This document shows positions 10,534 to 46,801 of a stretch of DNA of 64,000 nucleotides, piece by piece (the stretch's first letter is position 1; every line of letters starts with the position of its first letter). Under the pieces are notes generated by a model. The model saw only the letters and a program-made list of their open reading frames with translations, did no database searches and was not told the DNA's origin. The position numbers were made by a program, and so were the translations under genes. The stretch is from assembly GCA_032718475.1 (NCBI GenBank), contig JAUCBJ010008325.1:1-64000 (forward strand), written 5' to 3'. This stretch comes from Nemertoderma westbladi (taxonomy: Eukaryota; Animalia; Xenacoelomorpha).

Positions 10534-11439
10534 TCAGCCGCAGCCGGTCCTTAATCGAATACAGTAATACTGCAACTGTAAAGTAGGCCTAATACGGCGC
10601 TACTTTTGACTTCTGTACTTCAGTACTTAACCAACCGGGTCGTTCAGTCGTTGGTTGTCCAGTCTGTAGTTTTGTTCCGTTACCGGTATAACAGGCCAGA
10701 GTACTGGATTACAGGAAAAGCATATCAGCATATCCAGGTTATCACATCCAACCTCAGACAATCAGAACCTCAACCAACAGGGACTAGGTTGGTTGCCTGT
10801 GTGTTCTTACTGCTGTACCGGTATTGTTTTTTCTCTAGCTGTCTACAGGTCTAGCGCGATCTGGCAGTCCATGCAAATTATTCCATCAGATTAATTTTCA
10901 CTTCTGCCCATCCAGGAGTAACGACCACGCGACTGGTATGGTAGGGTCACAGGCTGACAGGTATCGGCACGCTACATGAGTGTCGCACATTGACCGCAAG
11001 TATTTTGATATTTCGTATTACTGTATGCTGTATTTATTATTCCAGTATTTTTTGATACAATTCTGATACTGTAATGTTGAATTAAATTGGTAATCCGATA
11101 CTGCCAATCAAAGTTTATGTTAATATATTTATTTAGAAGGTGTGGTTTATAGTGTTTTTGAAAAGGTTTATCTTAGCTTTTTTATGTTTTAAGTCTGATA
11201 CAGTATGATGATCGAAATGCCCATACCCATTTAGAATTTTCTCATATGTAAAGAAACGCATTTTATCTGGTATTTAGCTCTACCGCGGTTACATCCCTTA
11301 TGCAGAATTACACTTCACATTATTGGCATTGCCTTACAGGTACGGTACATTTCTTATGATTTAGGATATACATACTGTAGGCCTACTGTAGGAATATTGA
11401 TAAAATTAATAATGGGGCACACCGAAGGGAACTCAGACA

Positions 11440-12470
11440 AAATTGCGCCGCCACAACTCCCTATCACCAATGCCATTGGCTATATGTCCTTTCAGAAACG
11501 TACCAAGAATGTCATGGGCTGTCCGCCATGTTTATTCACTCCATGGGGCTGCCAAAAATCATTTGTGCACTGGCTGGTCCTCACGGCGAAAGCAATGTCC
11601 TGCAAAGTGGAGGCGGCTCTGTTCAAGTGTCAAGCTAGGGGAGACTATTGAAACACCTCCATGTTATATAGTGTTTGTTTAGAGATGTTTTCAATGTTCT
11701 TGACACAATGAACCCGGCGTAGTATGAACTCAGCAGTTATTGTATTGTATTGTAATTTTTATTGCCCATTGTACATATTACATTATTAGCACAAATGAAT
11801 ATAATTTACATGGTACGTAACAAAATAATACGGGCGCCTATTACCCCAAAATTAAGTTCACGTTAGAAAACCGCCCAACAGAATATTCCAACGGTCAATA
11901 ATAATAGAGGTACTTGTAGAAGTCAAATAACAAGCTCGTACAATAGTATTAGTTGAGGTATTAACTCGAATATATAAAGAGAAAATATTTCTCCGCAGCA
12001 CAGCCTTAAAATTATATGTTAATTTATGTAGTATATGTTTGTGTTTATGTAGTATGCCAGTTATGTAGTACCCAACATAGACTCTCATATGCAGTAGGAG
12101 TAGGCCTTACTGGTTCTTATGCTGCACTAAATAAACGAACCTTAAGATTCCGTTGCATTCTATGGGATTTCCAAAATCTGGACATAATGTACAAGTACAA
12201 TTCAATGCCACTCATGACTTCCCCTTACGTATCCGAAGGTCTTCACCTGACTTCCGTATCCATGATCCAAAGTAGCAGAAGTCATCCACATGCTCAAGCA
12301 AACCATCCCTGGAACTTCAAATGCTCATACCATCAGACATTTCCTGGGGGCTGTCGATGTTCACGGTCACCAACATTTTGGTCTTTTTGGAATTTACAAA
12401 AAGACCGACACTAGAAGCAGCCTGTTCCAATGAGCTGAAAAGCCTTTTGTCTCCCTCCAGTGATTCTGAC
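11440..12470 (-). mobile_element. Two degenerate pieces of the RTE-like LINE family (~11440-11725 and ~12170-12470)
   Basis: Match 21645-21950 and 22085-22365 (cactggctggtcctcacggcgaaagcaatgtcctgcaaag; cccttacgtat.cgaaggtc.tcacctgacttccg). Confidence 0.85.
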
Positions 12471-12729
12471 AGTAGAGGCCCACGCGTCGTTTGGAATTGC
12501 TCAGAACTTGTAGCTCAGAAGAAATTTCCCGGGTTTTATTAGGAACGAGGAGACACTACTACACCTTCCAAGGAAACGAATTGATTGACTCGCGAAGTTG
12601 AGGCTTACAGTATAGATAAACGAATACGGTTAACGAATAAAGGGAGAGACACCTACGCGTAGTTAAAACTTTCACATTAGGCCTAAATGTTAAGGTTCCG
12701 TGTTCGTAAACAATGCACCTGATATCACC

Positions 12730-14523: not shown

Positions 14524-15697
14524 ACACGAAGTGGGGCCTTCGCGCAGCACGTGACTTAAATTTAATTTAAGTACTAATTCGAAAGTATTACTGTATTAGC
14601 AAATTTTAAGCAGATTTCGCCTAATCACTTTTTACCTCTTTCATTTCTATTCAGACATTTCTGACTCTAGCGGTATAGTGAGAACTGAAGATGGATTAGG
14701 GTCTCCAGCCCCACAAAGACACAGCCTATGGATGAATAGTACATACGTACATCGGCCAAGTTTCATCTTGAATAACGGATAACGAAATGAGAGACGGATC
14801 TCACTTTCAGAAATTTCGTCGTATAGCGGCAGACCGACTAAATCCCCCCCCCCCCCCCCCCCCCCCCCACAAAGACGCAGCATGTAGTCCAGAATATATT
14901 GCAAGATTCAGCTTAAACTGATTAAAATCAATGAGACGGGAGAATCTATTCACTTTCAGGCATAAAGTAGTCCTATAGCGGGTGACTGTTGAACTGATTT
15001 TCAACAAAACAAATTTTCAACTTGGCAGCTTTAAATTCGACAAAGTTATAAGCATGTCAATATCATAACGACGACAACGATTTCACTTTCAGACATTTGG
15101 CCCTCTAGCGGCAGACTGGAGAACTGCAGATGGATTCGCCTCCTTTGAAAGTCACAGCTAATGGTCTAATACATATCTGCCAAGTTTCAGCTTAAACGGA
15201 TTAAAAGCAAAGAAATGGGAGGGCATTTAATGTTTAGACATGTGGCCCTCTAGCGGGAGACCATTGCACTGATGGTGTCTGAAAGTCTCTCAAAAATCTC
15301 AACTTTAGCTCATATTGATACCTAGAAATTTTCAACTTGGCAGCTTTAAATCCGACAAAGTTATTAGCATGTCAAAATCGTAACGACGACAACGATTTCA
15401 CTTTCAGACCTTTGGCCCTCTAGCGGCAGACTGGAGAACTGCAGATGGATTCGCCTCCTTTGAAAGTCACAGCTAATGGTCTAATACATATCTGCCAAGT
15501 TTCAGCTTAAACGGATTAAAAGCAAAGAAATGGGAGGGCATTTAATGTTTAGACATGTGGCCCTCTAGCGGGAGACCATTGCACTGATGGTGTCTGAAAG
15601 TCTCTCAAAAATCTCAACTTTTGCTCATATTGATACCTACAAATTTTCAACTTGGCAGCTTTAAATCCGACAAAGTTATTAGCATGTCAAAATCGTA

Positions 15698-15750
<53 letters not shown>

Positions 15751-19175: not shown

Positions 19176-19716
19176 TGTGACGGGATCCAGGAGGGATCCC
19201 GATTTATCCGATGTGGTAATTTAGTCCACGCGTCCCCGCCGTGTATAAGGGTGAAATAAAGTAACTGAGTTCTGAAGTTCGGTGTATAATAATAATAGGG
19301 CATAGGATATAGATATAGATATAATGTGTACAAGGCGGGATACGGTAACTAAAGTCCCGTGATCCCCTAACTAAACTAATTGACTACTAACCTACGCTAG
19401 CACTGCTACACTGAGATAACTGAATCACTGATTAATAGGTTATTGGTTATATTGCACGGTGGCCTTACTGCTACTCAATCGATGCCATTCCCCCCTCTGA
19501 TTGGTTAATACCCTTGTTGGCGCCCCGTGGAGTATTCCCGTTCACTCCACCTGTTCTCCCTGGGTTAGGGGTTTGGCCCCTGACCCTCTATTGTGTGCTT
19601 CCTTCCCACTCTTATTGGGATGGCACGAGTTGGTTAATTGCCCAATCTCGTGGCTCCCAATATTGCTTATCGGCTTATAACTTTATGGGGTGTTGGCGGG
19701 ATTGAATAAGCTAACA
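19176..19716 (-). repeat. 3' LTR of BEL element 1 (~541 bp)
   Basis: Minus strand reads TGTTAGC...CCCGTCACA, preceded by the PPT GGGGGGGAG. 19176-19292 is identical to 34316-34432. The U3 boundary is inferred from the PPT only. Confidence 0.75.
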
Positions 19717-19754
19717 CTCCCCCCCATGCTATCTTCCCGGTAAGAAGATAGCAT
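19717..19754 (-). promoter_or_regulatory. Polypurine tract with adjacent 11-bp-stem hairpin
   Basis: Plus strand ctccccccc abuts the LTR. atgctatcttc-ccggtaa-gaagatagcat lies immediately internal to it. Confidence 0.7.
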
Positions 19755-20417
19755 CAACCTAAAAGTGCGTTACAATCCCGCTGGATCCCGATCTAGTATC
19801 GGGTGTGGGGTGGAATTCTTTTCTCTCGGGGTCGGCTTTCCAGGCCGCCCCCTATGGGTATGATAACGCTACCCTGTGTGCCTGGCGTCTCATGTCGGGC
19901 CGATCGCGCTCACCTCCCACGCAACTTTTGTTTCCCCAACATTTTCGCCCTATCTCACCTTCACTCTCACCCTAACTCTCTCACATTCGGACCTCCTCGT
20001 CCCTTACTCAGCCTCTTATTCTCCCCCCCCCACACTGGAATTGCATCGGCACTCTCTCCGCACTCCGCACTATTATTCCGTCCCTCAACCTCACTTCGAC
20101 CGTCTCTTCCCTTCTGACGAATCTCCCCCCCTCTCGTGCCGTCGCACTCAAGAAGTGTGAAATTGTCTGGCGTCTCGTCCATAGTGCCATAGTCAGTTAC
20201 CCCCCAGTCCCACTAGCTAGTTGAGAAAGGTTGTATGACTATAGTACTTACTCCGATCGTGTATTTTACTGCTAATTACTACGTACGTACATACAAATTG
20301 CACTTATATGATTGTTTGCATTAATTAAATTTGTACTTAATGGTTCGTACGTTGCATGCGGCGCCTTCCAGGCGCACCACGTCCCAGTCTCAGTCTCACT
20401 CCCTCGTATCTGGGAAC

Positions 20418-21570
20418 TTATCTGTTCCTCCTCACGTCCTCTTCCCTGGCCCGTTTCTTGGTTATCACCGTTCCTCTGGCATCATCCGCTTTCTGCTTCC
20501 GGACCTTCGCCGCCACTTCCTTGCTGATCCCGGTCGTTGGCTCCTTGGGCGCTGGTGTTATTAATGCCCGATACCGCTTCGCCGGTGGCCCCTCAGAATG
20601 GCCTGGTTGTCTCCCTCGTGTGGCGTCCCATAGGATCATTTTCATTGCCTTTGGTACGTGTTCCGCCAAGAAATCCCTAAACTCCCTCCGGTTCTCTGGT
20701 GTCCACCTGTCCAGGTACCGTTGCGTGTTCATAACTCCGGCGAACGATGCCGCCGTGCTACCTCTTGATAGGTAAACGGTAACCTTCGCTTTATGATTTC
20801 CATGTGGGTCTCCTGGTTTATGAGGAAGAAACCCCACTTGAACTCCTGGGCCTTCATGCGCTGGCGCGTCATGGCCCCGACGTCGGCCCACTCCTCGAAT
20901 CTTGTGAACTTCTCCTCGTCGCTCATCCAGTCGCACTCCCGCCCGTAGTGTCCCCGAAAGTGGCACTTTGGACATCGGTTATGCAACCGTGGACACGCCC
21001 CCATCCTGTGACTTGGTTCTCTACAGTAGAGACAAAAGGTTCCCCGTTGGAACCGGTATAGGCAGCTGCTTTCCTGATGGGTCTGTCTCCCACAGTAGTC
21101 GCAGCCGAGTACCAATGTCTCCCGTCCCACCTCGTCTTTCGTCCCAAGCGATCTCCGCGGTCTATGGAGTCGCTGGTAGGCGAACTTCTCTACGTTGCTC
21201 TCCCTGTTTACGTCGATCTCTCCGCCCCTCTCGGGCATCGTCTCCCCGAATACTATCCGTGGTGCCGTCCCCGGTTGCTCGCCCAACCTGATGGTGCTCC
21301 CCGCGAAATCCATCGCCGGCTCCTCGTGCACCCAGGTCCGCTTGCCGGATCTGTTCCAGAAGGCCCTCGCCCCACTGGCTGTCACCACCCTTCCGCCAAC
21401 CCAGTCCGTGTCCGAGTGGCCTATCCTTTCGATGGGCGGCATCTCTCCGAACTCGTCGCCGTCGTCTTCCTCTTCTGGTAGTGTTTCCAACCCCGGTATC
21501 CCGACGGATCCACTATGTCCCTTCCCGCCTTGGCTCTCGCCCGTAGCTCTCCATCCCTCTAGCTCCCTTA
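20418..21570 (-). CDS. C-terminal part of the extra ORF3: three CCHC zinc knuckles plus a basic tail (one apparent frameshift near 20755)
   Basis: CDYCGRQTHQESSC, CLYCREPSHRMGAC and CPKCHFRGHYGREC (each CX2CX4HX4C). In frame with 22631-23967 once the LINE is removed. The tail continues in ORF 20418..20975. Confidence 0.75.
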
Positions 21571-22630
21571 CTACTACTAGGATCGGCATGCTGCATTGCA
21601 GCTGCATTTTTAATAATGCTGTGCCGGCTTGTCAACAAAATTGCACCGCCACAACTCCCTATCACCCATGACATTTGCTAGATCATCCGCATCTTTAAGG
21701 CCAGTGTCCTTTAAGATGCGTCTCAAGAAAGTCATGGGCTGTCCACCATGCTTATTCACTCCATGAGGCTGCCAAAGTACAAGATTATGCACTGGCTGGT
21801 CCTCACGGCGAAAGCAATGTCCTGCAAAGCGGAGGCGATTTTGTTCTAGTGTCAAGCTTGGGGGAACCAATGAGACACCTCCAATGTTATATAGTGTCTG
21901 GTTGGAGATGTGTGCATTGTACTTGACACAATGAACCCGGCGTAGCATTCTTGTGAATGTGCCATCCAGAGATTTGGTGTCCTCAGCAGTTAGAGCCCAG
22001 CATGGACTCCCGTAGAGGAGTACTGGAACTACTGCTGCTCTAAATAATCGGACCTTAAGTTTCCGATTAATTCTCGGTGACTTCCAAATCCTGGAAAGCC
22101 TATTCAAGGCTGCCCATGCCTTTCCCTTACGTATTCGAAGGTCCTCACCTGACTTCCGGATCCATGATCCCAGGTAACAGAAGTCGTCGACATGCTCAAG
22201 CATACCATCCTTTGAGCTTATGCTCATCCGATCACAGACTTGCTGAGGACTTTCAAAGTTAACTGTCAGAATTTTGGTCTTTCTGGAGTTAATAAAAAGA
22301 CCAACACTAGAAGCAGCATGTTCTAATGAGCTGAGGAGCCGTTGGGCTCCCTCTAATGATTCTGAGAGTACTCCTAAGTCATCAGCAAAGTCTAGATCAG
22401 TTAGGTACTTGGCAGGATTTCCTCGACTTCTGGAGCCAGTAGGTGGAGTTATCATCACCCCATCATCATTATGATGATCTAAGGACATGCGTAGAACATA
22501 GTCAACCACAATAATGAATAAGAATGGTGCAAGTGTGTCTCCTTGGAGGACGCCCCATAACACTTCAAATGGTTCTGTGTCACCGTCAACAGTAGACACA
22601 AATGTTGTCGAACCATCGTATACCTATACA
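21571..22630 (-). mobile_element. 5'-truncated RTE-clade LINE inserted into ORF3
   Basis: ORF 21610-22599 contains GVLQGDTLAPFLF, DLDFADD, FCYLGSWI and RLRFAGHCFR. (TAG)n tail; 13-bp TSD tctagctccctta at 21558-21570 and 22631-22643. Confidence 0.93.
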
Positions 22631-24025
22631 TCTAGCTCCCTTAGCTTCCTTGGCGGTTGGTCGCCCTCGGCGCCCGCTGGTATGGGCATCGTTTGCAACC
22701 CCGACGTCGACTGTTTCGGCGATCCCAACGTCCATCCCAATTCTCGCCCTAGAGACTCCCCCGAACTCCCTGACGAAGTCCAATGAAGTTCGTCTAGGCC
22801 CGCCTGTTCCTCGAAGCCGTAACTCTGTGCCCTGGCCTCCTCTTCCCTCTCCTCTGCTTCTATCCTCTCCCGTCTAGCGACTTCTTCCAGTCGCTTTGCT
22901 TCTCGTCTGTCCGCCTCTAGCTGCTCCCATCTCTGATACGGTGTATCTGTCTCCCCGTCTACCAGATGTCGGCTGTTGTAGTACACCGACTTGCCCTTCA
23001 GCCCCGGGTGGTCTACCAGACCGTCAAAGGCCGTCTTAAAGGCTCTCCTGTAGCTTAGGGGTGATCCCGATAACAGAAATGCCCCTGGTTCCCTTTCGAT
23101 AACTACGGTCATGAATAAGTTAAGCAAACTTATCATCATCCAGTCCTCCTGCAGGATATATCGCTTCTGATATACCTTTATCGCTCCTCTGCGAAACTGA
23201 TATACCTCCTGCTTTCCCGGTCTCGCTCCCCACTTCAGCGAGTTCGCTAGTTCTGCTCCGTATTCTTCCCTAAACTTTCCCCAGTCCATCGGTTTGTGGC
23301 ATACGAGCCCCAATAATTGGCCCATCGCCACCGCCCCGCATTGGCCTGTGTTCTCGACCACCCCCAATCCATCCGGTGCCATCATAGCCATAAAGACTTT
23401 CTGCATATCCAGGAGGTTGGTGGCGTCCTGACCAATGATCCTCTCCGCGTCCTCGCGAATCGCCGATCCCACTTTCGTCGTCGACTTCTCTCTTACTAAT
23501 ACTTGTACCGCTTTCGGCAATCGGTCTAATTTCGGCCCATCCCTCTTCCCATACGTCCCTAGGTCGAATAAGAAGATGTCCCCATTTGGCGCGGCCAAAT
23601 GCAAGAGTATGGTCCTGGCCGACCCTGCCGTTCCTCGTCTCGAACCCGCTTCATCTTCCACGGTTCCCTCGTCATCTAGGATCATATATCCTCCTCTGTT
23701 GACGGACTCTATGAATCTTTTCCAGTCCTTTCTCGGTGATTCCCTCGGGTACTTCGGAATCCCGAACTTCGCCTCGTCCCCTTTCACCACGTAGTGGAAG
23801 TGTTGGAAGATCGCGTTGTCCAGCGACGGCGTTCCGTAGGTCCCGACCAGCCGCTGCTCGTGCATCTCCCGGAAGTGGTCCTGCAGCGCTCGTGCCGCGT
23901 GACCCCTTTCCAACTTCTCGTAGTATCCTCTCGTCTTCTCCTCCGGGTGTCTTTCGGTGAAATCCACCAGTATTTCTTTTCCATTCTGACTCCGCCTTTC
24001 TCTTCCTGATCAGCTTACTCGCCAT
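22631..24025 (-). CDS. N-terminal part of the extra ORF3: DEDDy (WRN/EXD/RNase D-like) 3'-5' exonuclease plus charged helix
   Basis: ExoI ILDDEG; LLHLAAPNGDIFLFDL; LPKAVQVLVREKSTTKVGSAIREDAERI (ExoII); NLLDMQ; GAVAMGQLLG; KW..R..Q.RYILQED (ExoIII-like). The likely start ATG at 24025 needs a 1-nt correction in an A-run near 23978. Confidence 0.75.
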
Positions 24026-24533
24026 TCCGAATGCTACACTCGCTCACCTGCAGGGTGGTGCCTTACCAAGGCGCAATACAGATGAGTGAAGTATTTAAGA
24101 TGTTTCGTACAGTTCGATAATGGCCTACTTTCTACTTAATTGCGCCTTTCAAGCTAAATTTAGCCTAATTAATTTCGGAGCTAGTAAATCAGCCTAATTT
24201 ACAATTTCCGTCCGTTACTTTTATTATGTTCTAGAACGACTTTCCTTGTGTTGCCACTATTTTTCGATTTTTAGTCCTATTCTATTTATTTGTTTGTTTG
24301 CTTTGATTCTACTGTCCTACTACCTACTACTGCCTATGGGTTTATTCTATTCTCTGATCCATATTCTGGCCTACTCTGTGGGCCCATGCAGTACAGCAGT
24401 ATGCGTCGTGTGGCCACACGATTTATCCAGCTGTACTCATATGCCCCCCTCTCGCTACTAACTCTACTTACTGCTAACTAATATCTATATCCTTTTTACC
24501 CCTTTTACCTCTCACTCTCTCTCTCTAACTAAT

Positions 24534-25574
24534 GGTACTACGTACCCCCTAACTCTAACTCTAACTAGGTACCACGCACCTACTAACTCTAACTCTAACT
24601 AGGTACTACGTACCTACTAACTCTAACTAACTATTGGTACTACGTACCCTCTAACTCTAACTCTAACTAGGTACTACGTACCTACTAACTCTCTAACTAT
24701 CGGTACTACGTACCCTCTAACTCTAACTAGGTACTACGTACCTACTAACTCTAACTAACTATTGGTACTACGTACCCTCTAACTCTAACTCTAACTAGGT
24801 ACTACGTACCTACTAACTCTCTAACTATCGGTACTACGTACCCTCTAACTCTAACTCTAACTAACGGTACTACGTACCCTCTAACTCTCTAACTATCGGT
24901 ACTACGTACCCTCTAACTCTAACTAGGTACTACGTACCTACTAACTCTCTAACTATCGGTACTACGTACCCTCTAACTCTAACTCTAACTAACGGTACTA
25001 CGTACCCTCTAACTCTCTAACTATCGGTACTACGTACCCTCTAACTCTAACTAACTATTGGTACTACGTACCCTCTAACTCTCTAACTATCGGTACTACG
25101 TACCCTCTAACTCTAACTCTAACTAACGGTACTACGTACCCTCTAACTCTCTAACTATCGGTACTACGTACCCTCTAACTCTAACTAACTATTGGTACTA
25201 CGTACCCTCTAACTCTCTAACTAACGGTACTACGTACCTACTAACTAACTAACTCTAGGTACTACGTACCTACTAACTAACTAACTCTAGGTACTACGTA
25301 CCTACTAACTAACTAACTCTAGGTACTACGTACCTGCTAACTCTCTAACTCTAGGCACTACGTACCTACTAACTAACTAACTCTAGGTACTGCGTACCTA
25401 CTAACTAACTAACTCTAGGTACTACGTACCTACTAACTAACTAACTCTAGGTACTACGTACCTACTAACTAACTAACTCTAGGTACTACGTACCTACTAA
25501 CTAACTAACTCTAGGTACTACGTACCTGCTAACTCTCTAACTCTAGGCACTACGTACCTACTAACTAACTAACT
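24534..25574. repeat. Tandem array of ~30 GGTAC-TAC-GTACC hairpins separated by CTAA/CTCTAA runs (~29-37-bp units)
   Basis: Unit e.g. taggtactacgtaccta-ctaactaactaactc. Lies inside element 1 between integrase and ORF3. Confidence 0.95.
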
Positions 25575-25683
25575 ATTATTTTTATTTTATTTTATTTTTA
25601 TTTGTGTGGGAAGGGCGTCTCGCCCTCAATCCCACCCCCCTCAGTCCAAAACTTGGACGACTAAACTCCACTCTAACTCCAAT

Positions 25684-26610
25684 TTAAGGTGCCCCTTCTA
25701 GAAGACAGCATTTACCTACCGCTCTCCTGTAGGTTTTTCTGTCCTTCGCACCTATCTTTCCACCTATCCGCACTTCTACCGATCGGACTCTTCCGTCCTC
25801 GTCGGAGTAGGTGCCTACAACTCTCGCCAACCGCCACTGGTTGTTGATGATAGTATCATCCGTAACGATTACGAGATCTCCTACTTTTAACTCCCGATTC
25901 GGTTTCCTCCACTTGCTTCGCTTATGGAGCGTGGGTAGGTATTCTTCTACCCACCTCCTCCAATACTCTGCGCTTATTGCTTTAGCGACTTTCCAACTCT
26001 GGCGGGAATGTATATCATCTGGGTCTACACCCCGCATATCGATGGTCGCTGGCCTTTCCATCAGAAAATGGCTAGGCGTCAACGCGTCTAATGACTCAGG
26101 GTCATCATTCTCCGGGTATAGCGGTCTGCTATTAATGATCCCCTCGCACTTCGCAAGTACTGTCCGTAAAACGTCCTCAGTGACCATGTGGGTGTTCATT
26201 AACTTCGTCATTAGACGCTTTGAACTGCCCACCAGTCTCTCGACGCATCCTAGTGTATGTGGTGCATACGGCGTCCTTCTCTCCCACTTTACTTGTCGTC
26301 TCCTCATGGCTGCCCTGACTTCTTCTCCCTCCAAGATGTCCAAGGCCTCTGCCATCTCATTCTCTGCGCCCACAAAGTTGGTGCCGTTGTCGCTGTATAT
26401 CACTGCGATCGTCCCACCTTTGCGGTCCCTAAACCTTTCTAAGGCGTTAATGAATGCTGATGCGGTTGCATCTTGGGCGAGTTCTATCCCTACCGCCCGC
26501 GTATTGTTGCATACGAAGATAATACCGTAGCGTTTCTCCGTGTGTCGCATCACCTTGATCTTTATCGGCCCGAACATGTCCACACCGCAATGCGTAAATG
26601 GCGGGTCGTG
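25684..26610 (-). CDS. BEL/Pao integrase core and C-terminal domain
   Basis: PPFTHCGVDMFGP, YSDNGTNFVGA, VERLV, INSRPL, ALTPSHFL, WRRWVEEYLPTL, GDLV, WRLARV. Same frame as 26611-31785, separated by a single TAG. Confidence 0.95.
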   Translation of the reverse strand, partial: HDPPFTHCGVDMFGPIKIKVMRHTEKRYGIIFVCNNTRAVGIELAQDATASAFINALERFRDRKGGTIAVIYSDNGTNFVGAENEMAEALDILEGEEVRAAMRRRQVKWERRTPYAPHTLGCVERLVGSSKRLMTKLMNTHMVTEDVLRTVLAKCEGIINSRPLYPENDDPESLDALTPSHFLMERPATIDMRGVDPDDIHSRQSWKVAKAISAEYWRRWVEEYLPTLHKRSKWRKPNRELKVGDLVIVTDDTIINNQWRLARVVGTYSDEDGRVRSVEVRIGGKIGAKDRKTYRRAVGKCCLLEGAP

Positions 26611-29600
26611 CTATCTTACCCTACTCGCCGGTAGTGGCGCCATCTCCTGTACGGCTCGTTCCTTCTTCGCTCGTCGGCAGGTCTGGCACTGCCCCACTAC
26701 CGTTTTAACCTTCTTCCTTAGTTGTTTGACCCAATAGGTCCTCCTTATCTCTGTGAGGGTTCGGTTGGTGCCCCCATGCAATATCGATTTGTGGGAGTCC
26801 CATATGATCTGGTGGACTATAGGCAATCCTGTGGGAATGATGATGGGTTTCGGTGGCACGACTATGCTGTTGTTATATCCCACCCTAGAATTCATTACTA
26901 GAATCCCATCGTCGTTGAGTTGCGGCGACAGTGTAATCAACTCGCTGTCCCGTCGGAGGTGCTGTTGGTTGCCGACACGTTCCACCTCGTCGCCGTAGTT
27001 CTTTCGTTGTTCATAGCGGATTATTGCCTTGGCCGCTCCTTCCAGATCTATGGTTTCCCTGGTTTTCTTCTCCTTATTAACTCCCGCGAGGAAATTCCCG
27101 AAAGCTCTCCAGTACGCCACTAATTTCTTGGTCTTGTACCAACTAGAACTGTAGCTGAGGAGTTTGTCCGTCGGGTTATCGCGTAGTTCTTGCTTTGGTT
27201 GCACGTCCCTAATCTCCCTCACCATCTGGGAGTATATCTCTTCTCCCTCTGAGTCTCCCTCTTCTCCCTCTGATATTGGTTCCGAGCCCGGGTCCACCTT
27301 CCTCATCGGCGGCCAGGCCTCCCTATCACTTAGAAATTGTGGCCCATGTTGCCACAATACTTCCTTCTTTAAGAAAGTGTGGCGTTCCACGCCCCTCGAC
27401 AGCAAGTCCGCTGGGTTCTCGTCTGTTGGGCAGTAGTGCCACCTTTCCAGTTCTGTGCTCGCCCTTATTTCGTCCACTCTATTCGCGACGAATATCGGGT
27501 ATCTCGTCTTTTCGTTGTGTAGCCAACCAAGCACTACCATGGAGTCCGTCCAGTAGTGTGTCTCCACTATGTTGGGAATTGTATCCACTAGGTAGGCTGT
27601 GGCTCTAACTCCTAGTCTCGCAGCTGTCAATTCTAACTTGGGAACAGATGCTGAATCTGGCGGCGTTGACTTAGCTTTGCTAAAGGCTAGTCTGGGCTTG
27701 TGAGCCCCCTCTCGTTGTACTAAATAGAGTGCCGCTCCGTATGCCTCTAACGACGCGTCGGAGAACATATGTAGGTCCAGATTCGTCATGTTCCCGTCCG
27801 GAAAATACACTCGCGGCATGTTGTATGTTCCCATCCTCTCCAAGTCTCCTGTCCATTTGCTCCACTGTTTCTTGATGTCCTCTGGTACCTCTACGTCCCA
27901 CTCATCCTTCAATTTATATACTCTCTTGAGTATCTGTTTCCCCGTGACTAGTAATGGGGATGCTAGGCCTAGGGGATCGTATATCCTTGCTATATACGAT
28001 ACATAACCCCTCTTCGTATGGGTGTCTGCGCCCTCTTGGCTCAGCTGATACTTCAGTTCGTCTGTTCCTCTATCCCACACGATTCCCAATGCCTTTTGCT
28101 GCGATTGTGTTCTCTTATTCGCCATGTCCTGTCCTTTGGCTGTTGTAGGGTTGTCCATGGTCGATTCCGGTTTCTTGTCCTCTATTGCCTTGATAAATTC
28201 TTCTGAACTGGATTGGAATTTGGTCAGGTTGAAGCCGGATCCTTTCAGGATGTCGCGAACCTCGCGCCCTGTTTCCAGTATCTCCTCAACCGTATTTCCA
28301 GACTCCATACCGTCGTCTACGTAGAAGCCGCGTCGGATCATATCGACGGCCCTACTGCTGTATCTATCTTCCTTGCCCTTTACCGTGTCTCTCACTGCCA
28401 TAGTCGTCGTAAATGAGGACGACTTGGCCCCCATGTTTTGTACTACCATCTTATACGCTGGTATTACCGGCGGTTCTTCTTCGCCGTTATACCATAAGAA
28501 GCGTTGACTGTCACTATCTTCTTCCGTTACACGGACCTGGTTGAACATGCCTTCTATGTCACACGTGAAGGCGTGTTTCCCATTTCGAAATCTAAGTAAC
28601 ACCTCTATGCCCGAATTGTAAATATTTGGGCCTTCCAACAGGTAATCGTTTAAGCATTTTCCGTCGGTCTTTGCCGATGCATCGACTACCATCCTAAGTT
28701 TACCTTTCTTTGGGTCTAATGCTACGTGGAGTGGCAGGTAGTATGTCCTGTCCGTGTTCGGCTCGTCGACCGGTAACTCCACGGCCCATCCCTTCTCGAC
28801 GTACTTCTTAATTGTTTTGTGAATGTACTCGTTCTTCTCGGGGCTCCGTTTTAGTGTTTGTTTCAGCTTACGAAGTCTCGTGAGTACCATCCCTCTATTA
28901 TCGGGTAGCGGTATCTTCGGTAGTTTCCATACCATTCCTATTGTATACCGCCCCTCATCACACGTCATCGATTCCTCCACGCTTTGTAGAGCCTGGTTGT
29001 CTTCTACCGAGGTCCTGACCCCGGTCTCTTTCAGTCCCTCAAAGTCTTGTCTGAGCAGTCTTTTAAGCTGCTCCTCTGCTCCCTCATCACCCATTTCCTG
29101 CATTGTTCCCACGAACATGCATCCTGATGTCTCCGACATCCTGAATGGTATCTTGCTCTTAATTGGACCACTCAGCGTCCACCCGAATGGTGTTAATATA
29201 GCCACCGGGTCGCTCTGCTTGTCTTCGCCGAAGACCGTTTGCATTCTTTCGTGGGCCGTCGGGCAGTCCATTCCCACTATGATGGATACCTTCCTAACGT
29301 CCACGTCTGGGATCGAGAAGTCAATGTTGTCCAGGAATTTGTATTGCTCGATCTCGATGTTGGTTGGCCGCCTGGCATTGATGTTAATTGACTCTATTAC
29401 TTGGATGGGGTCGATGGTTGCCCCATAATCGCATCCTGGTGCCACTGCTGCAATTGCGCACCATCCTGTCCTCATCTCTAGGATCTCATCTTTGCTAGAG
29501 ATGGTTGTTACCGCCATCCTGCTTGGCCTTGTTCTCAATCCTATTTCTTCGGCTACCCATTCCTCGACTAATGTGAAGGCAGCTCCACTATCAACCAGCA

Positions 29601-31785
29601 TTAGTGTTGTTACTGATCGATTGCCTTCCCCGATCACTCGCACCGGTACTACTCCAAGTAACACCGTGCCTCTCTTCTTCGCCCCTACCGTGCTCGTGCT
29701 CGTTGCCATCGTTTGGCCTCTCCTTTGGCCAAACTTGACCGGCTTCTCTTGGCATTCCCTGGCCTTGTGTCCACTCTTCACACATCGCGAGCAGATTTTA
29801 TTGCTCGACGCGTAATCTATCTGGTCTTGCCTCGGTAGCGCCTGCCAGTACCTGCAGTTCATGGTTTTATGAAGCGCATTTGCGTGTAGCTGGCATTTGC
29901 TCTTTGGGTCGTAGCCCTCTTTATACAATGCATTGCGTATCGCAGTTATATTCGTACCAAAGTCCCTACTATTCTTGTTGACTGGATTTGGCCTACTGGA
30001 CGTACTGGGGTTATGTTTATTCATGTTGTTATTGTTCCCCTGTCCGTTCCATGATGTAGTCTTGTCTTCGTTTGCCTGTGGACTTGCTGTCCCCTGGGTC
30101 GCTGCGTATGGCAATGATTGCCTGAGTCTCGGCAATGCGTTTGATGTATTGTGCTCTGGTTTCGGCCTGTAGTGATCTGTCTTTGGTCCCTTTCCCAGGC
30201 TATCTTCACTATAGACTGGGTCCGTTATTAGTTCAGCCTCGTAATTTAAGAAGTTTGACATTTCTTCTAAACCCGGTTCCGCACCCTTCTTGTCTCGAGT
30301 GGAGAAAGCGATCTTCCTCCACTTGTTGCGCAGCCAGTTCGGTAGTGCCTGCGCTATCGTGGTGATGTTGTTGGACGCATTGAGCTCGTATGGCGCGTCT
30401 AGCGTCTTCAACACGATTAGCGCCTTTTCGACTTTGTTAGCAAACGTCTTGATGCTAACGGGGTTATCCTGTAGGCCACCCGATGTTATGCCTCTCAGCG
30501 TCTGCCTGATGATCTTGGCCGGGTGCCCGTATTCCCTATCCAGTGCCCGCCATGCTGTCGTGAAGCCGCCCTCTATTCCCTGATATTGCCTCACGATGTC
30601 GTATGCTGGGCCTCCCGTGTACACTTGTAGATACTTTAGGCACTCCGCCTGCGTCAAGTTTTTTGTTAGTATTTCGTTACTATACATTCGCCGAAACTGT
30701 AAATATTCTTCCGGCCTACTCCCGTCGAACTTGAATGGTTCCACGGGTGGTAACTCGATCCTCGTTTTCAAAGCATCGATCAATGTGGCCATCCCTATCG
30801 CCTGCGCTTCCAATGGATTCGACGGGTGCTGTATAGTTTCCCCTGTTTGGTGCGTTCCGTCTGTCCTACTTCTTGACCTTCTCTGGCTTGGGTATGTCAT
30901 TGGGGGTAGCGGCCCCCTCCATATATCTGTGTCACGCGATCTGTTTTCGTCCAGGGGTCTCGTTGTTCTTGCTACCATCGGGGTATATTGTTGATATTGT
31001 GATGGGGGAATGTCACCCTGCCCCCCCCCCCCCACCGGTATGTTTGGTAATGGGGTTGATGTTAATATGTTGGGGCCCATGCACCTATCCGCAATAATTC
31101 CCCCCTCCCCTGGGTATATGTTATGTCCCTGCATGCTGTAGTCATACTGCTGTGCTGGTACCGGTATAGGCCTATCAGCTTCTGGCCTACCCGCCGGTAT
31201 GTACTCCGCGACTTCCGGGTTTAATCCCGTCGTTCGCGCTACCCCATCGCCTACTCTATCTCTCCCAGCATGGCCTACGGTATGTGCAGTAAGACCTACA
31301 GTATGCCCTACAGTCTGCATGTGTTGCTCGGGATCGAAGTTTATTCTTCTCGAATAATCCTCCCCGCGGCTACCGTATTCTCGACCGGTAGGTATATTCC
31401 GTCGGAAAGTTTCTCTTCGACCCCCCTCTCTACTGTTTTCATCTTCGTAGTGGTACATCGTGTACCCCTCTCTCGGCGTGTAATGCGTCTCACCGGATCG
31501 CATCCCTCCGGGGCGACGGCAATCTCCCGGAGTCCGACCCCACTGACTCTCCGTTCTCATCTGGACTACCGACGGCTCGCTGTCCGTCCTCGCTCTTCTA
31601 TCGTTTGCGGCGATACTTCTACTACTGTCTTCCTTTCTTCTCCTATCAGTGGAATATTCCCGCTCGCGAGATCTCTCGTCGACCTCCCGGTTAAACCCCA
31701 CTGTTCTTCTTCCCTCCTCTGATCGGGCCCGACGCTTCGTCCGCCCTCTCGCGACGTCAACCTGTCTCTCTCTGCTCGATCGCAC
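26611..31785 (-). CDS. BEL/Pao Gag-Pol: capsid-like Gag, Cys/His motifs, aspartic protease, RT, RNase H, integrase HHCC
   Basis: KFDGSRPEEYLQF, CSRCVKSGHKAREC, MLVDSGA, RMVVDAS, CDIEGMFNQV, FYVDD, LHMFSDAS, WTDS, FVANRV, NPADLLSRG, H..ILHGG..CQTC. Confidence 0.96.
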   Translation of the reverse strand: MRSSRERQVDVARGRTKRRARSEEGRRTVGFNREVDERSREREYSTDRRRKEDSSRSIAANDRRARTDSEPSVVQMRTESQWGRTPGDCRRPGGMRSGETHYTPREGYTMYHYEDENSREGGRRETFRRNIPTGREYGSRGEDYSRRINFDPEQHMQTVGHTVGLTAHTVGHAGRDRVGDGVARTTGLNPEVAEYIPAGRPEADRPIPVPAQQYDYSMQGHNIYPGEGGIIADRCMGPNILTSTPLPNIPVGGGGQGDIPPSQYQQYTPMVARTTRPLDENRSRDTDIWRGPLPPMTYPSQRRSRSRTDGTHQTGETIQHPSNPLEAQAIGMATLIDALKTRIELPPVEPFKFDGSRPEEYLQFRRMYSNEILTKNLTQAECLKYLQVYTGGPAYDIVRQYQGIEGGFTTAWRALDREYGHPAKIIRQTLRGITSGGLQDNPVSIKTFANKVEKALIVLKTLDAPYELNASNNITTIAQALPNWLRNKWRKIAFSTRDKKGAEPGLEEMSNFLNYEAELITDPVYSEDSLGKGPKTDHYRPKPEHNTSNALPRLRQSLPYAATQGTASPQANEDKTTSWNGQGNNNNMNKHNPSTSSRPNPVNKNSRDFGTNITAIRNALYKEGYDPKSKCQLHANALHKTMNCRYWQALPRQDQIDYASSNKICSRCVKSGHKARECQEKPVKFGQRRGQTMATSTSTVGAKKRGTVLLGVVPVRVIGEGNRSVTTLMLVDSGAAFTLVEEWVAEEIGLRTRPSRMAVTTISSKDEILEMRTGWCAIAAVAPGCDYGATIDPIQVIESININARRPTNIEIEQYKFLDNIDFSIPDVDVRKVSIIVGMDCPTAHERMQTVFGEDKQSDPVAILTPFGWTLSGPIKSKIPFRMSETSGCMFVGTMQEMGDEGAEEQLKRLLRQDFEGLKETGVRTSVEDNQALQSVEESMTCDEGRYTIGMVWKLPKIPLPDNRGMVLTRLRKLKQTLKRSPEKNEYIHKTIKKYVEKGWAVELPVDEPNTDRTYYLPLHVALDPKKGKLRMVVDASAKTDGKCLNDYLLEGPNIYNSGIEVLLRFRNGKHAFTCDIEGMFNQVRVTEEDSDSQRFLWYNGEEEPPVIPAYKMVVQNMGAKSSSFTTTMAVRDTVKGKEDRYSSRAVDMIRRGFYVDDGMESGNTVEEILETGREVRDILKGSGFNLTKFQSSSEEFIKAIEDKKPESTMDNPTTAKGQDMANKRTQSQQKALGIVWDRGTDELKYQLSQEGADTHTKRGYVSYIARIYDPLGLASPLLVTGKQILKRVYKLKDEWDVEVPEDIKKQWSKWTGDLERMGTYNMPRVYFPDGNMTNLDLHMFSDASLEAYGAALYLVQREGAHKPRLAFSKAKSTPPDSASVPKLELTAARLGVRATAYLVDTIPNIVETHYWTDSMVVLGWLHNEKTRYPIFVANRVDEIRASTELERWHYCPTDENPADLLSRGVERHTFLKKEVLWQHGPQFLSDREAWPPMRKVDPGSEPISEGEEGDSEGEEIYSQMVREIRDVQPKQELRDNPTDKLLSYSSSWYKTKKLVAYWRAFGNFLAGVNKEKKTRETIDLEGAAKAIIRYEQRKNYGDEVERVGNQQHLRRDSELITLSPQLNDDGILVMNSRVGYNNSIVVPPKPIIIPTGLPIVHQIIWDSHKSILHGGTNRTLTEIRRTYWVKQLRKKVKTVVGQCQTCRRAKKERAVQEMAPLPASRVR

Positions 31786-34235
31786 GCCGCTGGGGATACT
31801 CGCGATCCCCCTATTACTTTCCGTCGCCGGTCGTTGCGGTTTACCTATTTCGGCCCTCGCATTATCCGCTGACGGCTGTGGGAGACTCCCTGCCCCCCCC
31901 CTCTCGCCGCTAACTCCCTGTTGTGGGGTCCTCGTAGCCCCCCCCCACTCGCTACGTCTAACTTAGCTACCTCTCTCCCCGCTATTATATACCTCTCTAG
32001 TCGACACATCAACCCTACTGCGGTCGGGTCCATTCACCCCCGCCTCTCCCTCTGCTATTGCGTGGCCTACCAGGCCCTCTACTCCCTCCCTACCAACTAC
32101 GTGGCCTACCAGGCCCTCTGCTCCCTGTCTACTAACTACGTGGCCTACCAGGCCCTCTGCTCCCTGTCTACTAACTACGTGGCCTACCAGGCCCTCTGCT
32201 CCCTGTCTACTAACTACGTGGCCTACCAGGCCCTCTGTTTCCTGGTTATGCAGGCCCGACGCGTTTACATTAATAGCACCCATATTGGAAACGGAATTAT
32301 TTTGTTCGTTTGGAACAAAGTTATTTATATTATTCTGCACGACTACGTTATCTGAATTATTTTGTAAATTCGGGCATAGGTCATTATTTAAATTATTCGA
32401 ATTATTTTGCGTAATTGCGTTATTTAAATTATTTTGTAGATTCGAATTTGGGTTATTATTTTGATTATTTGAATTATTTTGCGTAGCTACATTAATATCA
32501 GAATTATTTCCTACATTAATACTAGGGGCGTTCTGATTTAAATTTAAATTACTACCACTATGTAAAGCATTCCCTGTAATAAAGGTTAGATTAGTGTTGT
32601 CCCATACGGTATTATCAATATTAACAACGTCTACTGTACCATTATTATTATTACCCCCCCCCCGCCCGTACGGTCGCACCAGTCTTGAGTCTGTCGTGCG
32701 GTCCCTGTCAGTGGGGTATTAATAAATGTATCTACGGCCCTCGGCTCCCTAAAAATACTCGAGCCGGCCCCGCTTTCAGACGGCGACGCTCGCACCAGTT
32801 GCAGCTCGTGCGCCCGTCTAATCTTATCTCCCGCAAGCACATTCTGGCGTTTCCTTATTTCTTCCTGCTCTCGTTCAGCCTCTGCCTTTCTCTTCTCACA
32901 CTCCTGGGTGTCCCGGGCGGCCGACTCCGGTACACTCCTAATACTCTCCCTTCGTCTCGCCTCTCGCTCCTGACGTTCCTTTTCCTCCCTTGCCTCACGC
33001 TCCTTACGTTCCGCCTCACGCTCCTTGCGTTCCCTTTCCTCCCTTGCCTCACGCTCCTTGCGTTCCCTTTCACGCTCCTTGCGTTCCCTTTCACGCTCCT
33101 TGCGTTCCCTTTCCTCCCTTGCCTCACGCTCCCTACACTCCCTTTCCTCTATCTCATCATACTCCCTTAGGCTTTTCAAAGCCCTTTCGGCCCTCTCTCC
33201 GGTTTCTTTAAGCAATGCCGTTTCCCTCTCTAACCGCACTCTCCCTTCCTCTAGCCGTTCCTTCATTTCTCTATGACCTTGCTCTGCCATGCTGAGACGG
33301 TATGCGGCACCTATTTCTCTCACCGCTCTTTCTTTCGCGGAGGATGTAACAGACTTATCGGTTACGACGGATTTCCCCCGCCTTCCCGACCTACTGACTT
33401 TCCCCCGCTTCCCGGAGCTTTCTCCGACCGACGAGGCCGAATCCTCGGGGTTAACCTCGGATTCGCCCCCTTCGAGTCCCCTCCAACCTACTGGTTTTAC
33501 TCCCCGGGCATCGACCAAGTATGGCCCTATGTACACTGACGCTACGCTAGGTTCCATACTCCCACATTCCCACAGTTCAAACAGTTCCCCGGCAATCTCA
33601 TGTGCTCTCGTTTCGGCTAGTTCTCTCTGCCCAAAACGTATTAGATAATTAAAGTGTCTATCCGACTCACCTAGTCGCTTTCTCAGTCTCACCTCGTCTA
33701 CCTTCGCCCCTTCCTTCTTGGCATCCTTTAGCATCCTCCGGGCCGCGATGTAGGCTCGTCGAAGTCGCTCTGAAACCCCGACGTCCTCGTCGCCGACCTC
33801 TCCTCCGTCCCTCCGGGTTCGACGTCGTACCGGCGGCTCCACCGTCGCCGTTCCGGTGGGCCGTCCGTCGCCCTCGGCCTGTAGCTGGCCGGCGACATCG
33901 GTACCGATCTCTCCTCCGTCTCTTCGCGTCCGGCGTCGCACCGTTGGCCCCACCGTCGCCGTTTCGGTGGGCCGCTCGTCGCCCTCGGCCGGTAGCTGGC
34001 CGGCGACATCGGCGCGCCGTTCTCCGTCTCGTGTCGACTCGTCTCCATCTCCCTCCATCTCGCTCCCTTCCTCTCTTGGCTCGACTTCGGGTTCCAGACT
34101 CTCCTCGTTCTGGACTTCCGGTTCGCCCGTTATCGATGGCTCCGGCGTGGTGGGCCTGTATCGCTTGGTCGCGGCCTCGCGGATCGTTTGATCTTCGTCC
34201 GGGGTCCGCGGCGGTGTCTCGCCCGATTCACTCAT
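31786..34235 (-). CDS. Extended Gag N-terminus of element 1 (acidic region, E/R coiled coil, N-rich segment, 13-aa repeats), disrupted
   Basis: ATG at 34235, 80 nt after the 5' LTR. Frameshift in the G-run at ~32654-32663 and a TAA at 31963, then in frame with the 1724-aa ORF. Confidence 0.8.
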
Positions 34236-34315
34236 CTCGTCTGGTCGGTGGAGTTCGGCTAGCTAGCAGTGTAGTTCTTAGAGTTTAACTGGGGCGGCAG
34301 CTCGGATTTAGTTAC

Positions 34316-34432
34316 TGTGACGGGATCCAGGAGGGATCCCGATTTATCCGATGTGGTAATTTAGTCCACGCGTCCCCGCCGTGTATAAGGGTGAAATAAA
34401 GTAACTGAGTTCTGAAGTTCGGTGTATAATAA
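34316..34432 (-). repeat. Truncated 5' LTR (3'-terminal 117 bp only) of element 1
   Basis: Identical to 19176-19292 and joined directly to the protease region of element 2. Confidence 0.9.
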
Positions 34433-37400: not shown

Positions 37401-38187
37401 GATATTGTCCGTCGTCAGCAGCACCTGGCCCGGTACCACCACTCCACTCTGCATCAGCCAGCTGGTAACTTCCCGTTGATACCTGCGCTCCTCCTTATCC
37501 TGCATCTCTTCTCGCTCCACTAAGTTTCTTAACTCTGCGTCACTCACTTGGGTCGCCTGCGCTTGTGATGCCCATAGCAACCAGTTCTCCGTCCTAACTC
37601 GCCGAAATCGCTCCGATAACGCGCGGTGCTCTAGCAAGGCTGCTAAAACCCTGTCGTAAATCCTCGTCGCCACGTCGCTCGACTGAGACTCCACTGTTCT
37701 CTTTGCTAGGACTGCAAGCTCCTCCGTCTGTTTGAATAACGCTGAGTTGTATCCCTTTCTAATCTCTACTAACCCTTCCCTTCCGATGTTCGCTGAGTCG
37801 GCTAGCATCTTCCTTACCTTGTCCGCCGTCCGGGTTATATGTCCGGCATGCGCGCGAAGTTTCTTCTTTATCGCGATGTCAAATTCTCTTTCGCTTACCT
37901 GACTCACACTTGGTGGACTTGAAGGATTATTTCGGGAACTACGGGTACTCCTTATAGCCGCTGGGACCACGGCACTTACCATACCCACAGGTCTGGAAAC
38001 CGGGCTCCGGGCTCTCGCTTCTGCTATACTACCCTCCCTATCACTCATCTAATTCAAAATATTCAAAAATGAATTTGCCACCCAAATATTTCTAACTTTA
38101 TATATATATAGCTCAAAATCAATGTAATTTTATTTTTAAATATTATTTCTATATCCACTAGCGCGTGGCTACACCTTCAGGTTGCGA

Positions 38188-38189: not shown

Positions 38190-38232
<43 letters not shown>

Positions 38233-46743: not shown

Positions 46744-46801
<58 letters not shown>

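Follow-up and report, generated by a model that had tools for sequence, protein, structure and literature searches.

A BEL/Pao Element and Its Third Gene

The window, that is, the whole stretch of DNA analysed here, comprises 64,000 nt from Nemertoderma westbladi (assembly GCA_032718475.1, contig JAUCBJ010008325.1, positions 1-64,000, forward strand). Its minus strand carries a BEL/Pao element of 15.3 kb (19176-34432), a length that includes a 1.07-kb LINE and lacks most of the 5' LTR. The element has the following parts outside its third open reading frame (ORF3).

34316-34432, minus strand: 5' LTR remnant (last 117 bp), identical to 19176-19292
25684-34262, minus strand: gag-pol, with DUF1759, zinc knuckle, protease DSG, RT YVDD, RNase H DAS / Peptidase_A17, integrase and DUF5641
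24559-25576, minus strand: tandem repeat array separating pol from ORF3, built of 32-bp units that each contain a short stem-loop (repeat and folding analysis)
19717-19737, minus strand: polypurine tract (sequence)
19176-19716, minus strand: 3' LTR of 541 bp, TGTT...CACA (self-comparison and sequence)

Pfam identified DUF1759, Asp_protease_2, RVT_1, Peptidase_A17 (E 5.9e-40), Integrase_H2C2, rve and DUF5641 (E 2.5e-25), and gag and pol follow the PR-RT-RH-IN order together with BEL-specific domains. The 541-bp 3' LTR (TG..CA) lies within the 0.2-1.2 kb range of BEL/Pao LTRs and is accompanied by a polypurine tract, with 117 identical bp left of the 5' LTR. It contains TATAA at 19451 and TCAGT at 19423, and an 8-bp hairpin immediately precedes the LTR end. 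In LTRs, polypurine tract, gag-PR-RT-RH-IN order and BEL/Pao Pfam families, the element resembles Belpaoviridae / Semotivirus as described in the available text of PMC8742986, PMC3118150 and PMC554778. It differs in its size (~15 kb versus 4.2-10 kb, a range that is descriptive rather than strict), in having a nuclease-like third gene instead of env, and, in the window copy, in having no tRNA-Arg/Gly-type primer site and a 1-kb hairpin array ahead of ORF3 (PMC8742986). The array noticed upstream in the preliminary description was recovered as ~31 copies of the 32-bp period with 29 strict stem-loop units (folding z = -3.7).

In the window copy, two stops (31963-31965, 26611-26613) and, near 32.66 kb, a change of frame interrupt gag-pol. 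This copy is dead, and the host of ORF3 is a multi-copy BEL/Pao retrotransposon family.

ORF3 consists of the following pieces in the window.

22644-24025, minus strand: upstream piece with N-terminal region, exonuclease domain and acidic / coiled linker; frame break near 23.98 kb
21558-22643, minus strand: 5'-truncated LINE inside ORF3, which we take to be of RTE type, with a 13-bp target-site duplication (21558-21570, 22631-22643)
20729-21557, minus strand: downstream piece with acidic linker and knuckles (ORF and motif analysis)
20933-21103, minus strand: three CX2CX4HX4C zinc knuckles (21103-21062, 21034-20993, 20974-20933; motif)
20418-20756, minus strand: basic C-terminal tail, in another frame in the window copy (ORF analysis); length variant in other copies near 20.76 kb

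As first proposed, ORF3 occupies the env position on the same strand as pol, with the integrase stop (25684) on one side and the polypurine tract / 3' LTR (19716-19176) on the other, and has no env features. A search of its three pieces for a transmembrane anchor found none, the highest 19-residue Kyte-Doolittle windows reaching 1.3, 0.04 and 0.66. The three knuckles are all canonical. In the ESM Atlas the knuckle piece led to CCHC / HEXBP-like clusters (at most 0.85, recognition 2130). A derivation of the knuckles from either gag within the window was unsupported (best BLASTP E 0.017 and 0.11).

The interrupting LINE is a truncated RT fragment (Pfam RVT_1, E 3.7e-10) bounded by the 13-bp direct repeat. 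Frame arithmetic agrees with the earlier statement that its removal rejoins ORF3, since the exonuclease and knuckle frames are in register. LINE-free joints across the insertion site were seen in other copies on one contig of run X1 (41 letters on the shorter side) and on three contigs of run X2 (45 letters); a joint of 18 letters in run X3 was not counted, and a search of run X5 saw none. The 461-codon open frame is not that of the ATG at 24025, and a third frame holds the tail (20418-20978), so that the window copy has two further frame breaks, near 23.98 and 20.76 kb. At these two places the contigs of other copies vary in length, in all covering contigs at the first and in a minority of the depth at the second, and read-through into the tail may be confined to some copies. 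The expected protein of ~850 aa thus holds for the family (465 + 267 + 111 codons) but not for the frame-broken window copy.

ORF3 was present on family contigs at identities from 99% down to below 90%. None of the contigs listed spans integrase to ORF3, so the constant linkage of ORF3 to the element is indirect. Could ORF3 be a separate insertion with its own termini? We judged this unlikely, as self-comparison revealed no terminal repeats flanking ORF3 and its base bias is that of pol: both are purine-rich and T-poor (T 0.165 and 0.141 in ORF3, 0.168 in pol), compared to 0.268 in the LINE and 0.308 in the flank.

A Predicted DEDDy Exonuclease Domain

The N-terminal domain of ORF3 is predicted to be an exonuclease of the EXD/WRN/RNase D type (PF01612).

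23104-23700, minus strand: DEDDy-type (PF01612-like) exonuclease domain (Atlas, directed profile, hhalign, alignment)
23676-23674, 23670-23668 and 23451-23449, minus strand: predicted catalytic residues D112, E114 and D187 in 461-codon numbering (alignment)
23160-23158, 23148-23146 and 23145-23143, minus strand: ExoIII-region residues Y284, E288 and D289 in the same numbering (alignment)

The motifs named in the preliminary description are present in order: ILDDEG at 23682, LLHLA at 23607, IFLFDL at 23577, KVG at 23475, IRED at 23460 and YILQED at 23160. Altogether, eight motif blocks in order support the DEDDy assignment (hhalign, MAFFT). At ExoI, D112-x-E114 was matched to DTE by combined-profile hhalign, while MAFFT retained the Asp and shifted the Glu. 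At ExoII, K, G and D187 are invariant in alignment A1 (24 sequences). At ExoIII, Y284 and the Gln three residues upstream are invariant in A1, with Glu at +4 and Asp at +5. ExoIII had been called non-canonical in spacing, which it is, but it is also atypical in sequence, with YxxxE versus the family's YxxxD. The spacings between motifs exceed those of the bacterial set (75 versus 59-60; 97 versus 65-68).

Several lines of evidence bear on the fold. First, in a blind ESM Atlas (language-model) search, 24 of 30 matches fell in 3'-5' exonuclease (PF01612) clusters, the best of them at 0.94 with 178/256 features and PF01612 on 34% of the cluster members; the remaining six were unnamed clusters of 213-214 aa at 0.95. 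Recognition of the domain was 2622, where known families mostly reach 2300. Second, a directed profile built from 79 DEDDy sequences, all bacterial, scored 9.1 bits (P=3.7e-5, 0/2000 shuffles), and the reversed sequence and eight other window ORFs were negative. Scaled to the size of Pfam this P corresponds to E ~0.9, so the sequence evidence by itself is weak. Third, hhalign aligned 179 columns with a score of 31.8 versus 19.3 for the best of 100 shuffles, at probabilities of 39% and 9%; the EXD-only score was 25.8 versus 23.9 for the best shuffle, and global mode with the EXD set gave nothing useful. Identity to bacterial EXD2-like members is ~20%.

Other searches with the exonuclease piece were empty. 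Pfam, to which the earlier description had looked for an exonuclease family, gave no match at E <= 1, the gathering score not being reached, and NCBIfam, PHROGs and PDB sequences gave none either. There was no match in a search of 5.8 billion proteins (253-807 aa, and 808-2305 aa, the second range being weak evidence) or among metagenome and viral loci, and a plasmid search returned two matches, both at E 4. The sole match among 1.84 billion representatives, 18 residues to a 14-stretch repeat protein, was disregarded. An Rfam search gave two sub-threshold matches, and a tRNA scan nothing. A single-sequence AlphaFold model reached a pLDDT of 35, and a Foldseek search with it was uninformative. 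A guided model, made from the window domain and 23 of 30 bacterial EXD2-like sequences (seven were omitted for a misfit to the trimming pattern), reached a pLDDT of 65 and matched EXD2, EXD1, Egalitarian, Nibbler, WRN and RNase D; these matches are circular, because the alignment dictates the fold, and the model was not counted as evidence.

The negative searches of curated families and sequences, together with the failed single-sequence fold, would suit a domain that is not DEDDy at all, in which the motifs are due to chance and the gene encodes a different type of accessory protein that binds RNA. Set against the blind Atlas result, the directed profile and the eight ordered motif blocks, such a reading appears highly improbable. 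The proposed exonuclease identity is supported by the Atlas, the profile, ExoI and ExoII; Pfam, PDB sequences and the protein databases gave no match, and ExoIII is atypical.

The domain is like the host proteins EXD2, WRN exonuclease, Nibbler (Mut-7), EXD1 and Egalitarian (PF01612) in motif order and predicted fold, and unlike them in its insertions between motifs, its YxxxE and its triple-knuckle tail. The atypical ExoIII, the stem-loop array directly upstream and the (circular) fold matches to Egalitarian structures with I-factor RNA would also be compatible with an RNA-binding adaptor of the Egalitarian or EXD1 kind, weak or dead in catalysis, whose grip on stem-loops, for instance those of the array, would serve the localisation, export or packaging of element RNA. 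Pseudo-nucleases usually lose their catalytic acidic residues, whereas ORF3 has acidic residues at all four acidic positions, unchanged in every variant listed, and we consider an adaptor of this kind unlikely.

Among the profile subsets, the EXD2/WRN-like one fitted best of the three tested (P 3.2e-4, compared to 0.036 for RNase D and 0.042 for PolA). Together with the ability of CCHC knuckles to bind single-stranded DNA as well, this could indicate a DNA-directed helper whose task would be to trim or proofread the 3' ends of cDNA ahead of integration, in the way that WRN and EXD2 act on DNA. However, the profile is bacterial only and cannot predict substrate, and integrase normally processes LTR ends itself, which leaves such a helper quite unlikely.

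Purifying Selection and Proposed Function

Among copies of the family, purifying selection acts on the exonuclease domain, the part of ORF3 that the selection test covered. Among 40 listed variants in the domain (23 further variant rows lie outside these counts), 31 were synonymous, compared to 11.6 expected (0/200,000 simulations), and 32 were at third codon positions, with no stops, no indel rows and a crude omega of 0.12. The only variant in a catalytic codon among those listed is silent, and with CpG sites set aside 25 of 30 were synonymous. For the antisense frame whose third positions coincide with these, the score was 29/40, so the strand is not fixed by the selection test alone.

We tentatively favour the reading that ORF3 is a third gene kept by purifying selection, encoding a predicted fusion of a 3'-to-5' exonuclease with three zinc knuckles, which likely trims the RNA of its own element; taken as a whole, this is a realistic possibility that falls somewhat short of probable. 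The ORF3 protein would probably be translated from an RNA that is separate, spliced or started internally. Its N-terminal domain would adopt the DEDDy fold and be active as a nuclease, with Glu288 or Asp289 as the fourth metal ligand, and the nucleocapsid-type knuckles and basic tail would bind element RNA. In the particle, the enzyme may remove 3' tails that are single-stranded and halt at a duplex or hairpin; candidate substrates are a primer derived from the LTR, remnants of RNA left by reverse transcription, or the 3' end of the transcript.

Selection between copies is to be expected only where the ORF3 of a given copy promotes the spread of that copy; purifying selection among copies thus favours a role in cis over a diffusible anti-piRNA factor. 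The latter would trim or destroy host piRNA or siRNA precursors, or compete with host trimmers, and so lift silencing of the element. Nibbler, Mut-7 and EXD1, host proteins of the same fold, act in small-RNA pathways, and such enzymes are among the (circular) guided-model matches. The family is multi-copy, and a silencing-related role is raised in the available part of PMC5408684. On the other hand, the benefit of a diffusible suppressor would extend to every element in the cell and should weaken between-copy selection, which is difficult to reconcile with an omega of ~0.12, and nothing at the locus points to such a role. Furthermore, mature piRNAs are usually protected by 2'-O-methylation. 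We consider counter-silencing somewhat unlikely, and return to trimming of the element's own RNA.

A Candidate Self-Priming Site

One possible substrate concerns the start of reverse transcription.

34256-34315, minus strand: expected primer-binding region after the 5' LTR; no TGG within 60 nt
19345-19353, minus strand: candidate self-primer LTR site, exact complement of the first 9 nt past the 5' LTR

In this one damaged copy, no TGG, and so no tRNA-Arg- or tRNA-Gly-type 18-nt primer-binding site, was found in the 60 nt past the 5' LTR. The candidate site, ~70 nt past the predicted transcription start, would pair over 9 exact bp, or 12 bp with one bulge (-13.1 kcal/mol). Equal or better pairing was obtained in 38/3000 shuffled LTRs, 31/1000 shuffles and 9/2068 internal positions (P ~0.01-0.03). 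This weak pairing is a hint of self-priming. As in the self-priming elements Tf1/Sushi, Tcn1 and TAR, a tRNA-type primer site is missing and the sequence after the 5' LTR is complementary to the LTR; unlike in them, the exact match is 9 nt, under the criterion of at least 10 bp of LTR complement starting 0-5 nt past the 5' LTR (available text of PMC6317226). We found no self-priming BEL/Pao example in the searchable literature.

A speculative extension, which we regard as very doubtful, is a BEL/Pao lineage without tRNA priming, in which LTR-derived RNA would anneal after the 5' LTR and the knuckle-tethered exonuclease would cut back the unpaired 3' tail as far as the edge of the duplex, making the RT primer. 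If true, this would be a primer-maturation nuclease encoded by a retroelement and a concrete job for captured DEDDy genes.

Precedent and Significance

DEDDy ORF3 cargo is already known from rotifer elements of other classes: the available text of Rodriguez, Kenefick and Arkhipova (2017, PMC5408684) describes it in the bdelloid LTR retrotransposons Juno and Vesta and also in Athena/Terminon, in agreement with the preliminary description. Compared to Juno and Vesta ORF3, as given there, the gene studied here is similar in encoding a (predicted) DEDDy exonuclease in the env position, in having no transmembrane segment and in the change of one catalytic Asp to Glu (DEED in rotifers); in our alignment this change is at the fourth catalytic position. 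It differs in its host element, which is BEL/Pao rather than gypsy-like, in the three fused CCHC knuckles and in its length of ~850 aa. Furthermore, the same source, in its available part, reports no departure from neutrality for env and GDSL ORF3s sequenced in rotifers, whereas selection is strong on the exonuclease domain of ORF3 in the family studied here.

A precedent in nematode LTR elements, which the preliminary description also named, may exist but could not be traced: in the openly searchable literature, we found no passage on it and no BEL/Pao element with an exonuclease gene. What is new, in that it was not found in this literature, is the exonuclease cargo in a BEL/Pao host, the knuckle fusion and the selection signal.

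Why retroelements capture 3'-5' exonucleases has been a standing question since the 2017 rotifer report, which in its available text shows neither selection nor function (PMC5408684). A second LTR superfamily with an exonuclease, under strong purifying selection and equipped with RNA-binding knuckles, indicates that the cargo is functional, and more than one capture of exonuclease cargo is probable. The exonuclease domain, which is uninterrupted, lends itself to direct assay, and the multi-copy family opens the questions of substrate, expression and primer to existing types of data.

The BEL/Pao element and its neighbourhood

A BEL/Pao LTR retrotransposon occupies positions 34432-19176 of the minus strand. 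The Pfam matches DUF1759, protease, RT, Peptidase_A17, integrase and DUF5641 follow one another as expected for BEL/Pao, and the pol motifs are DSG, YVDD and DAS. This copy is dead, as its gag-pol carries two in-frame stops and one frame change; other copies of the family are known here from contigs of public sequencing runs alone. In self-comparison of the window, the last 117 bp are all that remain of the 5' LTR, identical to the 3' LTR. A second BEL/Pao gag, 26% identical to the first over the capsid region, abuts this remnant directly, which suggests that most of the 5' LTR was lost through deletion or rearrangement next to it.

Features of the window
3' LTR of the BEL/Pao element, minus: 541 bp, TG start and CA end, preceded by a polypurine tract
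34433-38048, minus: second, different BEL/Pao gag and protease start (DUF1759, E 3e-10)
31963-32718, minus: Asn-rich, A+T-rich stretch of the gag region with a 39-bp repeat, in frame with downstream gag-pol
About 24025-20418, minus: ORF3, the gene between integrase and 3' LTR
21558-22643: RTE-type LINE inserted in ORF3
4613-5199, 11437-11725 and 12108-12474: diverged fragments (70-80% identity) of the same LINE family
55788-58655, minus: 955-codon ORF containing a reverse transcriptase domain (RVT_1, E 6e-41), probably a non-LTR element
2180-2881 and 15049-15750: inverted repeat pair, 702 nt, 99%, 12 kb apart
38190-39500 and 46759-48078: direct duplication of at least 1.3 kb, 96% identity

Structure of ORF3

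ORF3 starts 1.66 kb past the integrase stop; between the two lies an array, 1 kb long, of stem-loop units that repeat every 32 bp. The preliminary description saw no env features in it, and no transmembrane segment was found. Its exonuclease motif positions were all recovered in the sequence, and frame arithmetic bore out its proposal that a LINE, here 5'-truncated, splits the gene at a 13-bp duplication with the halves in register. LINE-free contigs cross the insertion site in runs X1 and X2, from two studies; no such joint occurs in run X5, and that in run X3 is too short to count. Contigs matching this LINE family far outnumber those matching the LTR element.

The three proposed knuckles lie downstream of the LINE site, each a canonical CX2CX4HX4C. 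Their derivation from either window gag is not supported, BLASTP showing no resemblance. The window copy of ORF3 has further defects, frame breaks at about 23.98 kb and 20.76 kb, and family copies in the run contigs vary in length at both breaks; the suggested fusion protein of about 850 aa therefore holds as a family estimate but not for the window copy. A minority variant in X1 and X2 drops 547 bases at 20395-20943 and with them the last part of knuckle three and the entire tail.

ORF3 and pol have a common purine-rich, T-poor strand bias from which the LINE and flank differ, and this points to long residence of ORF3 in the element. Support for constant linkage is indirect, since none of the listed contigs spans integrase to ORF3.

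Purifying selection among family copies

ORF3 is real and kept by selection. Over 23080-23780, which covers the predicted exonuclease domain, 1550 contigs in X1 and 957 in X2 range in identity from 99% to below 90%. Among the 40 listed variants (of 63), 31 are synonymous against 11.6 expected, a value reached in 0 of 200,000 simulations; 32 fall at third codon positions, none makes a stop, and the listed rows contain no indel. The comparison between copies sought in the preliminary description thus yields a purifying signal, with a crude omega of 0.12 from these 40 variants. Listed rows that are polymorphic between copies give 25/31 synonymous, and exclusion of CpG sites leaves 25/30. Alternative frames score 3-6/40 except for the antisense frame with common third positions (29/40); despite that score, the coding strand is assigned by the open frame and motifs. 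The run with the most contigs may be the window's own source, and X2 is a separate study.

Two contigs of low depth on the predicted exonuclease domain (22918-23486) come from run X5, which has another organism code and is tentatively taken as RNA. One of them shows 28 differences over about 236 letters. Either a diverged subfamily or carry-over DNA could account for these contigs.

Identity of the predicted exonuclease domain

The exonuclease call is supported by two tests but not by standard searches. Standard searches with this piece of ORF3 gave no match in Pfam, NCBIfam, PHROGs, PDB sequences, 5.8 billion proteins, or metagenome and viral loci; 1.84 billion representatives gave one short match, to a repeat protein, and unguided structure prediction gave no usable fold. 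On the other side, a blind ESM Atlas search (recognition 2622) placed 24 of 30 matches in 3'-5' exonuclease clusters, the best at 0.94 with 178/256 features and PF01612 on 34% of its members; the other six fell in unnamed clusters (213-214 aa, 0.95). Directed profiles were built from bacterial sequences (30 EXD2/WRN-like, 38 RNase D-like, 11 PolA; subfamily labels assigned here). The combined DEDDy profile scored 9.1 bits (P 3.7e-5, 0/2000 shuffles better), a directed result not significant at Pfam scale; the reversed sequence and eight other window ORFs were negative. EXD2-like sequences did best (P 3.2e-4), with RNase D (0.036) and PolA (0.042) poor, and hhalign aligned 179 columns at only 39% probability. 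A guided model (23 bacterial sequences, pLDDT 65), which matches EXD2, EXD1, Egalitarian, Nibbler, WRN and RNase D, was discounted as circular. The N-terminal domain very probably has a DEDDy fold, and a non-DEDDy protein, which the empty searches would allow, is highly improbable.

In the alignments, D112 and E114 fall in ExoI, D187 in ExoII, and Y284 with E288 (or D289) in ExoIII. ORF3 has insertions between these motifs relative to the aligned sequences, and the single listed variant in the catalytic codons is silent. Catalytic activity is predicted as likely; a catalytically dead RNA adaptor is improbable.

Possible role and relation to known elements

ORF3 is shown to be a protein gene under selection, with three knuckles, acidic residues in its motifs and no membrane segment. 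Its product would bind RNA of its own element and trim single-stranded 3' tails as far as the duplex edge, a reading we hold tentatively. A cis role is preferred, because selection between copies is expected mainly if the product benefits the copy encoding it; a counter-silencing nuclease is an unlikely alternative. Host proteins of this family, among them Nibbler, Mut-7, EXD1 and Egalitarian, process small RNAs or help to transport RNA.

Trimming of element RNA has a local hint in the primer region. An 18-nt tRNA-Arg/Gly primer site is typical of Belpaoviridae according to ICTV (PMC8742986), whereas this one damaged copy has no TGG within 60 nt after the 5' LTR (34256-34315). The first 9 nt there are instead complementary, without mismatch, to LTR positions 19353-19345, extending to 12 bp with one bulge (19345-19358) inside a predicted hairpin. 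This complement was equalled by 38/3000 shuffled LTRs, by 31/1000 on energy and at 9/2068 internal positions. It may be a lead for self-priming, noticed post hoc in a single damaged copy, its 9 exact bp falling below the criterion of at least 10 bp given for self-priming LTR elements in the available part of PMC6317226. Trimming of cDNA rather than RNA is decidedly improbable, and a primer-maturation nuclease encoded by a tRNA-independent BEL lineage would be a still longer shot.

The rotifer precedent named in the preliminary description is borne out by the accessible text of PMC5408684, where Juno, Vesta and the Terminons are described as having DEDDy ORF3s in which DEED replaces DEDD and for which no function was demonstrated; the accessible parts of PMC6431247 and PMC5718144 repeat this account. 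The available portions of PMC8742986, PMC3118150, PMC554778, PMC9094657, PMC11662393, PMC4131045, PMC3601003 and PMC6317226 do not mention an exonuclease in a BEL/Pao element. Wider literature searches, whose coverage excluded older subscription papers, Repbase and GyDB, found neither such an element nor confirmation of the nematode precedent named in the preliminary description. Compared to Juno and Vesta, as far as that source was available, the window element has in common a nuclease cargo in the env slot, which is already known; within the literature covered, the BEL/Pao host and the fusion to three knuckles appear to be new.
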